DNA of 64,000 nt. Source: Myxococcota bacterium. GTDB taxonomy: Bacteria > Myxococcota_A > UBA9160 > UBA6930. Position 1 is the first letter of the stretch, and each line of letters begins with the position of its first letter. The position numbers and the translations under genes are program-made. Where the stretch lies: positions 480,001-544,000 of the forward strand of contig OZ245015.1 of assembly GCA_965223705.1 (NCBI GenBank), given 5' to 3'. The notes below the pieces were generated by a model. It was given only the letters and a program-made list of their open reading frames with translations, ran no database searches and was not told the origin of the DNA. Below, one piece after another: positions 24,703 through 36,593 of this stretch.

Positions 24703-25473
24703 GTGACCTCCGAAGAGCGAAATCGAGAAGCGCAGCTCGCCGATGCTTGGCGCCGCGCATCGCGCGTTTCGATCCTCACGGGAGCCGGCCTTTCCACGGC
24801 GTCGGGTATTCCCGATTTCCGCTCCCCAGGTGGGCGTTGGGAACGCTACCAGCCCGTTCCGCTCCCGGAGTTTCTCGAGAGCGAGACGTCTCGCGAAACG
24901 TATTGGGGCTACAAGCGCGAGACGTGGCCGGTCATCCAGGCCGCCGAGCCGAATCCCGCCCACGACGCACTGGCCTCACTCGGCCGAGCCGGGAAAATCG
25001 CGTTGTTGGTCACCCAGAACGTCGATGGTCTGCACGAACGCAGCGGGTTTCCGACAGACCGCCTGGTGAACATTCACGGCACCGACGCTCGGGTCCGGTG
25101 TTTGTCGTGCAGCGAGGGGTTCAGTCGGGAGGCGATTCAACATCGGCTCGAGGAAGGCGAGCGGGTCCCGCGGTGCGCGTGCGGAGGGTTGCTCAAACCC
25201 GAGACGATCTCCTTTGGACAAAGTCTCGTCGAAGACGATTTGCAACGCGCGTTCGAGGGCGCGGCGAAGTGCGACTTGTTCGTCGCCGTGGGAACGTCTC
25301 TGGTGGTCGGTCCGATCAACGCGATGTTTGACATCGCGGAGCGGGCGGGAGCCGAGACCGCGATCTTGACCGCGAGCGAGACACCTTTCGATGAGCGGGC
25401 GGGACACCGGCTCCACAGTCCACTCGAAACGGTGCTGCCGGCCTTGTGTGCCGGCGTTCTCGGAACGCACTAG
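24703..25473 (+). CDS. cobB: Sir2-family NAD-dependent protein deacylase (sirtuin)
   Basis: [43 protein letters not shown] zinc ligands, LKP...FG, GTSLVV. Confidence 0.93.
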
Positions 25474-25633: not shown

Positions 25634-25849
25634 ATGGCAGCACGAAGAAAGAAGACGACCCGCCGCCGCTCGTCGAAGCCGGCAGAGCTGATTATTTCGA
25701 AGGCTCGCACGAAGGCTTCCGTCAAGAAGTGCAACGTTGGCGCGGAATTCTACGAGGCCCTCGACAAGGTCGTCCGCGACATGATCAAGGGCGCCGAGGC
25801 GCGCGCGATCGGCAACAAGCGCAAGACGCTGAAAGCGGTCGATCTCTAG
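25634..25849 (+). CDS. Bacterial histone-fold protein with basic N-terminal tail
   Basis: Core ELIISKARTK...NVGAEFYEALDKVVRDMIKGAEARAIGNKRKTLKAVDL matches the short prokaryotic histone pattern (long alpha2, RKTxxxxD, truncated alpha3); strong RBS, own promoter and terminator. Confidence 0.88.
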   Translation: MAARRKKTTRRRSSKPAELIISKARTKASVKKCNVGAEFYEALDKVVRDMIKGAEARAIGNKRKTLKAVDL

Positions 25850-25870: not shown

Positions 25871-25920
25871 ACGATAAAAGGCGGCGCGGGTCAAAGCCCG
25901 CGCCGCCTTCGTCGTTTTTA
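25871..25920. terminator. Bidirectional intrinsic terminator hairpin between convergent genes
   Basis: 13-bp perfect stem aaggcggcgcggg / cccgcgccgcctt with A-tract before and T-tract after. Confidence 0.8.
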
Positions 25921-27081
25921 ACCGTCCTCTTGGTCTTCGAGGGGTTCCGTGAAATGCGCGGGAACGACGCTTCGGTCGAGGTTGGCTCCGACTCGGAACA
26001 GATGAACGAGGGAGACTCGCCGCGCGACCTCTTCGAGGCCGAGCCCGCGTCGCGCCGCCACGTACTCGAGGCCCGCGCTGGCAATGGTGAGCGCTTTGCG
26101 GAGTGCCGCGGGTAGCGTTTCGGCATCGCCCAGCGGAAGGCGGTCCGCCACCGCGACCCGGTTCGCAAGCGCAATCAGACGAAACAACGCCGCCTGCCTG
26201 TGTCCCTCGTCGAGTGCCTGCAAAGCGAGGAGCAAACTCGGGGTGTCCTCCCGCAGGTCCGGAAGCCGCGGGATCCACACCGGAAGGGACCAGGTTCCGA
26301 TCTCGTGTTCTTCTGGCACGAGATCCCACGTGTGCTCCGGGACGAGGGCGTAGATCTCCAGCGAGGTTTCCTCGTCGGGGAACCCGAGATCCTGCAAGCG
26401 CCCTTCTCTCCAACGCCGCGCCCACTCGCGGTTTTCCGTCGGAAGCTCCCACGACACGGCCTGCAACATGCGGAAATAGCGCCAGTAGTCCTTCTGGAAG
26501 AGGATCCGCAGGAACGTGGTCACGTCCGCAAGATCATCCTGCTCGCGCCGCGCGGTGTAGTAGAACTGACCGTCGAGACTTTGGGCCGCGTCCGGAACTT
26601 TCTCTTCGTCCTCTTTGGTTTTCATGAAGACGTCGACCCGGTCCGCTAGCCAGAGGTAGACGAGCTCGGGATCGAGTTCGTGGCTCACTCGGAGCGCGGC
26701 GTCCTCGCCGGAATTGACGAGTGCGACCATCCACTCGGAGAACTTTGTGGGATCGGGCTCCCGGATGCCCCACGTATCGAGATCCACGCACGCGACCCAC
26801 TGCTCCGGCGTCGCGATGCCGAGCAGCCAGCCGGCATCGTGGAGCCCGATCGCTTTGGCGGTAAAACAGAGCTCGGCTTCCGGCAGCAACGGGACCACGT
26901 TTTCGGGTTCATCGAGGAGACCGAGAAGTTCGGCACGCGCCGCAACCGGGGTTTCGCAGATCACGGCGACGCACTGATCCGCGTCGAGCGAATTCAGTGT
27001 CGCAGAGGCCGCCGCGCGGTCTCGCCGAGCGAGACGCAGCAGATCGCCAGACAGTTCCCGAGGCGCCGCAACGGGTTTCAT
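25918..27081 (-). CDS. Conserved hypothetical protein, DUF6178-like
   Basis: Acidic helical protein with DLDTW and WREGRLQDLGF motifs recalled from DUF6178 proteins; not verified by search. Confidence 0.6.
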   Translation of the reverse strand: MKPVAAPRELSGDLLRLARRDRAAASATLNSLDADQCVAVICETPVAARAELLGLLDEPENVVPLLPEAELCFTAKAIGLHDAGWLLGIATPEQWVACVDLDTWGIREPDPTKFSEWMVALVNSGEDAALRVSHELDPELVYLWLADRVDVFMKTKEDEEKVPDAAQSLDGQFYYTARREQDDLADVTTFLRILFQKDYWRYFRMLQAVSWELPTENREWARRWREGRLQDLGFPDEETSLEIYALVPEHTWDLVPEEHEIGTWSLPVWIPRLPDLREDTPSLLLALQALDEGHRQAALFRLIALANRVAVADRLPLGDAETLPAALRKALTIASAGLEYVAARRGLGLEEVARRVSLVHLFRVGANLDRSVVPAHFTEPLEDQEDG

Positions 27082-34496: not shown

Positions 34497-35024
34497 GTGG
34501 CGGGACGCAAACGATTGATCGACGGACAACTCATCTTCATGGTGGCCGCTCTGGCCTTGCTGGTCGGCATCGGTTTCTGGCAAGGCGGGGCGCCTCGAGT
34601 CATTGAAGGCTTCGAGGGCGGGGGCCGCTTGGTGATGCGGATTGGCCTCATCGTGTTCGTCTCGCTCCTCGTCGCTGGTTTCGCCGAAGTCTTGGTGCCG
34701 AAACACTGGGTGCAAGGGGCTCTGGGCGAAGGGTCGGGGTTTCGCGGCATTGCGACCGGTGTCGTCGCCGGCGCCATCACGCCCGCAGGCCCTTACGTCG
34801 CGATGCCGATCGCCGTCGTCTTGTTGCGCTCCGGTGCGGCGGCGCCGCCGGTCATCGCGTTCTTGACGGCGTGGGCCCTACTGGCGCTTCATCGTCTGAT
34901 CGCGTGGGAAGTCCCTTTGCTCGGTTTGCGCTTTGCCGCCGTGCGCTGGGCGATTTGTCTCTTGCTTCCTTTCCTCGCGGCGTGGATGGCGACGTTTCTA
35001 CAGGACAAATTGCGGACGCCTTAA
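34497..35024 (+). CDS. Small permease (DUF318/ArsP-like half unit)
   Basis: LVPKHWVQGALGEGSG..G, AGAITPAGPYVAMPI, AFLTAW. Confidence 0.7.
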   Translation: MAGRKRLIDGQLIFMVAALALLVGIGFWQGGAPRVIEGFEGGGRLVMRIGLIVFVSLLVAGFAEVLVPKHWVQGALGEGSGFRGIATGVVAGAITPAGPYVAMPIAVVLLRSGAAAPPVIAFLTAWALLALHRLIAWEVPLLGLRFAAVRWAICLLLPFLAAWMATFLQDKLRTP

Positions 35025-35064
35025 GCTAAGCTCCTTCGTCCAACAAAAGGGGTAGAGACTGACG

Positions 35065-35442
35065 ATGGCCGCACGAAAGAAGACCACGCGCAAGAAAGCC
35101 GCTCGCAAAAAGACTGCTCGCAAGAAGACCGCTCGTAAGAAAGCGACACGGAAGAAGGCCGTGAGCAAGAAGGCCACCCGCAAGAAAGCGGGGGCCAAGA
35201 AAGCGTCTTCGAGCAAGAAGGTCGTGCGCAAGAAGGCGACTTCGCGCAAGAAAACCGCTCGCAAGAAGGCGACCCGCAAGAAAGTCGTTCGGAAGAAGGC
35301 CGCTCCGAAGCGCGCCGCGCGGAAGAAGACCACGAAGCGCAGCGCGCCGAAGAAACGCACCGCGTCGCCGAGTCTCGGCGACCGACTCGTTTTCTCCGAC
35401 GTGCGACGCGATGTCCTCCTCTGGTCGAAGCTCGGCCGTTAG
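35065..35442 (+). CDS. Histone H1-like Lys/Ala/Arg-rich repeat protein
   Basis: About 17 KK-containing pentapeptide units (RKKAA/RKKTA/RKKAT) with synonymous codon variation; AAGGGG RBS; short non-repetitive C-terminus. Confidence 0.8.
   Translation: MAARKKTTRKKAARKKTARKKTARKKATRKKAVSKKATRKKAGAKKASSSKKVVRKKATSRKKTARKKATRKKVVRKKAAPKRAARKKTTKRSAPKKRTASPSLGDRLVFSDVRRDVLLWSKLGR
35074..35360 (+). repeat. Degenerate 15-bp coding tandem repeat (cgcaagaag-core)
   Basis: Repeated cgcaagaag/cgcaagaaa units at 15-nt periodicity. Confidence 0.85.
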
Positions 35443-35450
35443 CGAGATCC

Positions 35451-36593
35451 ATGCCCCCTGCGCCGCGCGGCCCGCTCGCGGATGTCTTCGTCGTCGACCT
35501 GACCCGCGTGCTCGCGGGGCCATACTGCACGATGGTGTTGGCCGATTTGGGGGCCCGGGTCATCAAAGTGGAGCGCCCGGAAGTCGGTGACGACGCTCGG
35601 GCATTTCCACCTTTCGTAGACGGCGAATCGGCGTACTTCTCGTCGCTGAACCGCGGGAAGGAGAGCCTGGCGCTCGACCTCAAAGCGGCGGACGACCGGG
35701 CCATCTTCGAATCGCTGCTCGCGCGCGCCGACGTCTTGGTCGAGAACTACCGCGCGGGAACCCTCGACCGTTTGGGTTACGCGTGGGAGCGGCTTCACCG
35801 CGACTATCCGCGCCTCATTCTGGCGTCGGCTTCGGGCTTCGGGCAGACGGGGCCCTACGCGAATCGGCCCGCCTACGACATGGTCGTGCAGGCGATGGGC
35901 GGGATCATGAGCCTGACCGGTCACCCCGGCGGCCCCCCGACCCGTGTGGGCTCTTCCGTCGGTGACATCACGGCCGGGTTATTTACTGCGGTGGGCATCC
36001 TGACGGCGCTTCACCATCGGTCCGCGACGGGCGAGGCACAGCGCGTCGACGTCGCGATGCTCGATGGCCAGGTCGCGATCCTCGAGAACGCGATCGCGCG
36101 CTACGTCGCGACGGGCGCGGTACCGGGGCCCCTCGGTGCGCGGCATCCTTCGATCGCGCCGTTTGAGGCCTACGCCACAGCGGACGGGCATCTCGTCATC
36201 GCCGCTGGCAACGACGCGCTCTTCCGCGTCTGTTGCGACGTCTTGGGCATTCCCGAGCTACCCGCAGATCCGCGGTTCGCGGACAACGCGTCGCGCGTCG
36301 ATCACGTCGAAGCGCTGCGCGAGGTCCTCGAGGCGCGCTTCCGCCGCGAGACGACGGGCGTGTGGCTCGAGAAACTCGAAGCCGCCGGCGTCCCCTGCGG
36401 GCCGATTCAAAACGTCGAAGAAGTGCTGCGCGATCCCCAGGTCGTCGCTCGGAACATGGTCATCCGAGCCGGGGGGCTTGCGATGGCCGGAAACCCGGTG
36501 AAGATCACCGGGTTCACCGATCCGAGCGAGCGGCCTCCCGCCCCGGCGCTCGATGCGAGTCGAGACGAGATCTTGCGAGAACTCGAGGACTGA
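35451..36593 (+). CDS. CoA-transferase family III (CaiB/BaiF)
   Basis: DLTRVLAGPYCT, LGARVIKVE, NRGKES, DVLVENYR, SGFGQTGP, AYDMVVQAMGG. Confidence 0.93.
   Translation: MPPAPRGPLADVFVVDLTRVLAGPYCTMVLADLGARVIKVERPEVGDDARAFPPFVDGESAYFSSLNRGKESLALDLKAADDRAIFESLLARADVLVENYRAGTLDRLGYAWERLHRDYPRLILASASGFGQTGPYANRPAYDMVVQAMGGIMSLTGHPGGPPTRVGSSVGDITAGLFTAVGILTALHHRSATGEAQRVDVAMLDGQVAILENAIARYVATGAVPGPLGARHPSIAPFEAYATADGHLVIAAGNDALFRVCCDVLGIPELPADPRFADNASRVDHVEALREVLEARFRRETTGVWLEKLEAAGVPCGPIQNVEEVLRDPQVVARNMVIRAGGLAMAGNPVKITGFTDPSERPPAPALDASRDEILRELED

Follow-up and report, generated by a model that had tools for sequence, protein, structure and literature searches.

Introduction

Chlamydial Hc2 and BpH1 are described as variable proteins built from pentamers and completed by a non-repeat C-terminal part, and BpH1 is reported to be non-essential (PMC2848022). 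In Pseudomonas, AlgP and PhaF are described as DNA tethers for granules (PMC9239181), and in GC-rich bacteria, an enrichment of lysine repeats is reported for many DNA-binding proteins unrelated to each other (PMC5714199). True histones are known from few bacteria, most of them uncultured. Face-to-face histones are reported from Myxococcota (PMC12701072), and the basic tails that are common among such bacterial histones are described as not conserved in sequence (PMC11390915).

Here we describe a Lys-repeat gene in a 64,000-nucleotide stretch of Myxococcota DNA (hereafter, the window; host genome, 4.56 Mb, 65% GC). An earlier note on the window had described the gene product as H1-like and suggested a possible tie to a tailed histone encoded upstream.

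Results

The Lys-repeat gene and its basic chain

The Lys-repeat gene occupies window positions 35065–35442 on the forward strand, from an ATG at 35065 to a TAG ending at 35442, and encodes 125 amino acids. A purine-rich AAGGGG (35047–35052, +), located 12 nt 5′ of the ATG, resembles a ribosome-binding site in sequence and may function as one. The protein begins with MAARKKTTRKK, in which the MAARKK leader is encoded at 35065–35082 (+), and ends with LGDRLVFSDVRRDVLLWSKLGR. Its Lys/Arg/Ala/Thr repeat region (aa 4–98; 35074–35358, +) is acid-free, and the protein has exactly 17 KK pairs, mainly in imperfect (R/K)KK-x-x pentamers, in agreement with the reading frame, termini, and about 17 KK units given in the earlier note. 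Its composition is K37 R20 A21 T12 S10 (K+R = 57), and acidic residues are absent before position 106. A promoter scan at the gene gave no sigma-70-like site, and five terminator-like matches there were rejected as antisense copies of the repeats.

Pfam HC2 matched aa 2–100 of the Lys-repeat protein with an E-value of 1.5e-7 and 32.2 bits (cut-off 40), and NCBIfam NF038053 matched the repeats only, with an E-value of 1.6e-7 and 31.8 bits (cut-off 80), whereas the score for NF038052 (Hc2) was 14.1 bits against a cut-off of 135. One of ten other members of the family described below matched HC2, at 23 bits. The H1-like class proposed previously thus stands in the sense of an Hc2-type basic protein scoring below the Pfam and NCBIfam cut-offs, and fails in the stricter sense, as an H1 globular domain was not predicted. 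The basic repeat region likely binds nucleic acid, and by analogy with Hc2, BpH1, AlgP, and PhaF, the protein would quite probably bind DNA. AlphaFold, run on the single full-length sequence, drew aa 2–79 as one long helix (pTM 0.31), an outcome that we regard as uninformative for a low-complexity chain; the basic part is presumably disordered. An ESM Atlas search returned composition-level leads only, with low recognition scores, and in a cluster look-up the window's protein was absent from the collection, the existing names being 'hypothetical protein'.

A module family confined to one Myxococcota order

The C-terminal 35 aa of the Lys-repeat protein, used as a query, retrieved syntenic copies in three genomes, and iterated module alignments grew to 19, 45, and then 63 rows. 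By ORF reading, 73 of the order's 193 genomes (44 + 20 + 9) were confirmed to carry the module family, a count that leaves out some weak rows (E 0.01–0.1) of one profile search and includes a few members cut by contig ends or masking. Fifteen weak profile matches (4/18, 4/24, and 7/16) were discarded as false. Among the class's 32 other genomes, three with weak matches were read and all proved false (a fourth was left out), as did both matches outside the order among 401 genomes of the phylum. A scan of 1.84 billion representatives, from which, together with the genome searches, fused or longer forms were judged, produced 36 matches, none exceeding 142 aa: 33 with the same architecture, one fragment, one apparent TerB chimera, and one unrelated repeat.

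The module forms the end of the ORF in all 73 genomes, and a K/R-rich chain precedes it wherever the contig covers the upstream region. Complete members are Lys/Arg-rich proteins of 52–139 aa whose repeat length varies widely; the median chain has ~42% K+R and one acidic residue. Conservation of the C-terminus, which the earlier note had proposed to check, was borne out: the last ~20 aa are conserved and define the family. The family is single-copy save in one genome. In G011, two syntenic gene copies (L110 and L085) lie on different contigs, possibly reflecting a strain mixture.

Among the 63 rows, conserved Ser residues are encoded by 18 AGY and 29 TCN codons, and codon-position entropy is 1.18 at the third position versus 0.77 and 0.63 at the others. 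Because both Ser codon boxes are used and third positions are the most variable, we conclude that the Lys-repeat gene is a real coding gene; it is conserved, patchily lost, and confined to one Myxococcota order. The window copy is among the most divergent members (E-values of 2e-5 and 0.008 against family profiles), with F replacing Y in the module. Pfam, NCBIfam, and PDB gave no significant match to the module, and a literature search, with most subscription journals outside its reach, found no description of the family.

The C-terminal module and its predicted helix

The C-terminal module (aa 108–125; 35386–35439, +) was delineated from the alignments, the column profile, and an AlphaFold helix. 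The consensus of its ~18 residues is h-V-Y-S-D-h-R-R...h..h-L-x-R-L, in which an h-V-[YF]-[ST]-D cap precedes a predicted helix that bears a hydrophobic stripe. In 73 distinct tails, V was present in 60, Y in 65, S in 62, and R in 66; past this R come R/K, hydrophobic residues at +7, +11/12, and +15, and R at +14 in 59 of the 73. The count of D in this profile is fixed by the selection pattern used; in the alignments, D stands in every row of the 45 and in at least 90% of the 63, and one family has S in its place. AlphaFold placed the helix at residues 18–29 of the C-terminal 30-mer and at residues 104–122 of the full protein. The tail helix has a net charge of about +2, and in the window copy it contains Trp.

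A PDB profile search with the module gave a single match, which was not significant (E 0.31): the core h-V-Y-S-D-h (window 35386–35403) aligned with the tyrosine motif of an MPZL1 peptide (PDB 9mq5). This core resembles an ITIM-type pattern. Because several members have F or S in place of Y, the MPZL1/ITIM likeness is probably due to chance.

The averaged hydrophobic period is ~4 residues (peak at 85–90 degrees, with a weak signal at 100), and small residues lie on either side of the stripe. The best 11-mer had a hydrophobic moment of 0.47 versus 0.42 for shuffled sequences, 55 of the 73 tails lying above their shuffles; the corresponding values for the tails of ParA/MinD-like ATPases were 0.53 versus 0.40, with 32 of 39 above. 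These measurements bear on a reading of the protein as a tether of DNA to the inner membrane or a storage granule, in which the basic chain would hold DNA and the helix would enter the membrane or a lipid/PHA body. Consistent with such a role, the cationic helix lies at the extreme C-terminus and ends h-h-x-R-h-h like membrane-targeting tails, the tail looks by eye like that of the lineage's ParA/MinD-like ATPase, and the genome holds three WS/DGAT and three PhaC_N matches. Precedents are described in TubY, for a lysine-rich amphipathic tail that binds both DNA and membrane (PMC7762940), and in PhaF, with the order reversed (PMC9239181). Yet the amphipathicity is only slightly above that of shuffles and weaker than in the ATPase tails, to which the family profile gives 3.2 bits or less, so that homology between the two was rejected at profile level. 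Furthermore, no lipid or PHA gene was identified among the recurring neighbors at 44 loci of about ±1.5 kb, and by eye, other, phasin-like ORFs occupy the genome's PHA/WS loci. A tether is conceivable but rather unlikely.

Protein contact fits somewhat better than a lipid anchor, since specific residues are conserved and amphipathicity is modest; the chance that the predicted end helix is a protein-contact module instead of a lipid anchor is close to even. Such contacts have precedents in chlamydial Hc1, described as having a dimerization domain and a lysine-rich DNA-binding part (PMC2848022), and in PhaF, in which an oligomerization domain is reported (PMC9239181).

The ATPase used for comparison is an orphan in this genome (C1:4096034–4096909, –); it is found in 45 of 61 relatives, and a flexible linker leads to its conserved amphipathic end helix. 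The ParA/MinD-like ATPase gene of genus g2 stands directly before the CoA-transferase gene, whose start there often has a basic leader of its own.

A basic leader shared by DNA-associated proteins

The tailed bacterial histone of the window (71 aa; 25634–25849, +), our comparison gene, starts with MAARRKKTTRRR, and the DNA starts of the histone and Lys-repeat genes are as quoted in the earlier note. A degenerate DNA pattern for the leader matched eight sites in the genome, versus one with a reversed control. Four of the seven matches that were read are true gene starts, belonging to the histone, the Lys-repeat gene, a KATRK polymer, and Topo VI-A; otherwise the leader is rare in this genome. 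Alignment of the first 30 nt with those of the Lys-repeat gene gave 25 for the polymer, 21 for the histone, and 20 for Topo VI-A. The extended match KKTTR recurs in the genome four times in the tail of Topo III (C1:849561–852440), which ends in KKTTR repeats, and three times in another basic protein, and it is not retained between the histone and the Lys-repeat gene in relatives.

In five genomes, 30 of 31 matches to the leader pattern were read, yielding 16 true starts: 15 belong to proteins that are DNA-associated or pure K/R, among them a DNA methyltransferase, and one to a CheA-like kinase. The relatives' proteins with such a start include, in one genome, this type of methyltransferase together with a phasin-like protein, and a FYDLN protein begins similarly. 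It is well kept on the histone, whose tail is retained as MAA(R/K)(R/K)K in relatives, and on the polymer in seven genomes; a MAARKK-type leader was found in just 34 of 78 module-family members. The A-rich codons GCA and CGA are favored in general near gene starts of this genome: in a sample of 740 roughly called genes, GCA made up 20% of Ala codons near starts versus 7.5%, and CGA 30% of Arg codons versus 13%.

The resemblance between the starts of the histone and the Lys-repeat protein is real, as had been claimed, but it is not exclusive to the pair, because Topo VI-A and the KATRK polymer carry the leader too. Occurrence of the motif on unrelated basic proteins, which the earlier note had named as grounds for refutation, counts in part against its reading and favors the low-complexity explanation that had been offered as an alternative. 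Most plausibly, MAARKK is a standard, lineage-wide basic leader of DNA-associated proteins, and we do not take it as evidence for a histone-specific linker.

Lysine repeats in this genome occur also on Topo III, Topo VI-A, Topo VI-B, and a FYDLN protein, and one modifying enzyme may be common to all lysine-repeat proteins of the lineage. A bolder reading takes the leaders of the histone, polymer, Lys-repeat protein, and Topo VI for a common address or modification site served by one writer/eraser pair, with the Lys-repeat helix anchoring condensed chromatin to a membrane or scaffold protein. It appears very improbable; if true, the order would have a eukaryote-like chromatin toolkit by convergence.

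Several other basic proteins were observed in the lineage. The KATRK polymer is a near-pure repeat of 153 aa (G000:C1:1537343–1537804, +, in this genome), encoded just before an rpoZ-like gene; the sequence upstream of the polymer gene is conserved. Similar polymers occur in G014, G025, G036, G039, G042, and G050, including genomes without the module family, and the polymer is a better candidate than the Lys-repeat protein for the order's main H1-like protein. A 34-codon pure K/R/A ORF in G038 (L187:1501–1602) that shares the leader and has a good ribosome-binding-like sequence is possibly its shortest form. At the topoisomerase VI locus (C1:634890–637818, –), Topo VI-A starts with MAARKK, likewise in G014 and G039, and the B subunit has a basic N-terminal stretch. 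A 161-aa protein (C1:40956–41441, –) has an aromatic N-terminal unit (WLYYLDK-type) twice and a long RKK tail, with no significant Pfam match. Two related G014 proteins (L347:1477–1869, +; L357:1485–1976, –) each join a lysine-repeat chain to a phasin-/AlgP-like helical part, one with the two parts in the reverse order of the other; for neither was a homolog found in this genome.

Gene neighborhood of the Lys-repeat gene

In the window, the Lys-repeat gene lies between a small ArsP_1-like permease gene (34497–35024, +) and a CoA-transferase family III gene (35451–36593, +), both of which represent family-level synteny only. Depending on the family, the neighbors are queuosine salvage and CoA-transferase genes, TerB and EF-G genes, or a radical SAM gene. 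As the neighbors change by family, we rejected an operon function deduced from them.

The EF-G gene, found near the Lys-repeat gene at 14 of 44 loci in several families, accords with the idea that the protein mainly binds RNA, ribosomes, or polyphosphate and not chromosomal DNA, the helix serving as a docking or turnover signal. Hc2 is reported to bind RNA more tightly and to repress translation (PMC2848022), and AlgP is described as sitting on polyphosphate granules (PMC9239181). However, the EF-G neighbor reflects lineage synteny and is not universal, and the leader otherwise marks DNA-associated or pure K/R proteins at 15 of the 16 true starts. We consider such a ligand improbable.

Co-occurrence and linkage with the histone

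The histone gene starts 9431 nt upstream of the Lys-repeat gene and is flanked by a sirtuin gene (Sir2/CobB-like deacylase; 24703–25473, +; Pfam SIR2, E 4e-40). Its product matched PDB 9f2c weakly (E 0.015). The earlier note had suggested a core, linker, and eraser set; in such a model, the Lys-repeat protein would serve the face-to-face histone as its dedicated linker, the repeat would be the source of the histone tail, and the sirtuin would act as eraser. In sampled relatives, the histone was found in 58 of 61 genomes and the module family in 34 of 61, all 34 with the histone. Since the histone is near-universal, this overlap is expected anyway (~32 by chance at 58/61), so that no special tie is indicated; 24 of the 58 histone genomes had no module-family match, absence calls being soft on account of the short profile and the draft genomes. 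Co-occurrence thus runs one way only.

Clean losses of the Lys-repeat gene between conserved neighbors also argue against a dedicated linker. G014, a single-contig genome of 97% completeness, keeps both the histone and the queuosine-salvage/permease block, and the Lys-repeat gene is missing; in G024, which likewise lacks it, the permease gene is joined directly to the CoA-transferase gene. Linkage is confined to family f1, where 11 of 20 genomes have the two genes on one contig, with a spacing of 10–17 kb in ten and 75 kb in one. Both leaders are conserved. Outside f1, the two are separated by at least 23–91 kb in seven genomes, and the module was absent from all 57 further histone loci over flanks of up to 10 kb, complete at 23 of them.

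The sirtuin gene lies within 1.5 kb of the histone gene in only 8 of 30 loci, outside the conserved context of the Lys-repeat gene, although the sirtuin CobB1 is reported to act on the lysine-repeat nucleoid protein HupS (PMC11229371). A DUF6178 gene (window 25918–27081, –) converges on the histone gene in 25 of the 30 loci, far more often than the sirtuin adjoins it. The leader of the Lys-repeat gene is, moreover, closer to that of the KATRK polymer, which G014 and four more genomes without the family carry, and the missing H1 globular domain also weighs against a linker. Nearness of the histone and Lys-repeat genes is family-level synteny only, and a dedicated core-plus-linker histone pair is not supported; as a whole, the proposed set is very unlikely.

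Discussion

We propose that the Lys-repeat protein would be an accessory nucleoid protein whose basic chain would bind DNA without sequence preference. Its end helix would self-associate or dock on a partner, and several basic chains joined in this manner would bridge and compact DNA. We hold this reading tentatively, at a likelihood somewhat short of even.

The genomic evidence does not back the reading of a dedicated bacterial linker histone. What is gained is a small, nameless, easily synthesized family with a conserved 18-residue module. Besides a tailed histone, the order has lysine-tailed topoisomerases and a minimum of two proteins that resemble H1 tails, a combination that makes it suitable for tests of polycations on histone-wrapped bacterial DNA.

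Compared with eukaryotic linker histone H1, the Lys-repeat protein has the composition of the H1 C-terminal tail and coexists with a histone-fold protein; by contrast, nothing corresponds to the globular winged-helix domain (no Pfam match; two AlphaFold helices without a compact fold, pTM 0.31). In actinobacteria, like repeats are described as recurring on the unrelated DNA-binding proteins TopA, HupS, and Ku of one GC-rich genome (PMC5714199), and a sirtuin is reported to be able to act on such lysine repeats (PMC11229371). Those proteins belong to another phylum, and the Lys-repeat protein differs from them in consisting mostly of repeat and in opening with a stereotyped MAARKK leader that a histone carries too.

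With AlgP and PhaF, as these are described, the Lys-repeat protein has in common a lysine/alanine chain joined to a helical part. Their helical domain is reported to be N-terminal, large (124 aa in AlgP), and accompanied by KPAA repeats, whereas the module here is C-terminal and 18 aa long; a phasin domain was not found by Pfam, pha genes were not among the recurring neighbors, and a polyphosphate gene context was not observed either.

The closest likeness is to Hc2 and BpH1, which, as far as they are described, share consecutive pentamers in which two or three residues are basic, a variable length, acid-free repeats, a separate non-repeat C-terminal part, and a distribution that looks like that of a non-essential gene. 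Against the models for Hc2 (HctB; PF07382, NF038052) and BpH1 (NF038053), the Lys-repeat protein falls below all cut-offs and matches in the repeats only; the family is shorter (52–139 aa), a 36-aa super-repeat is not evident, and its members are limited to a single Myxococcota order, in which a true histone is present as well. By analogy, the family may be regarded as an order-restricted, so far nameless variant of the Hc2/BpH1-type basic nucleoid proteins, with an end helix of its own.
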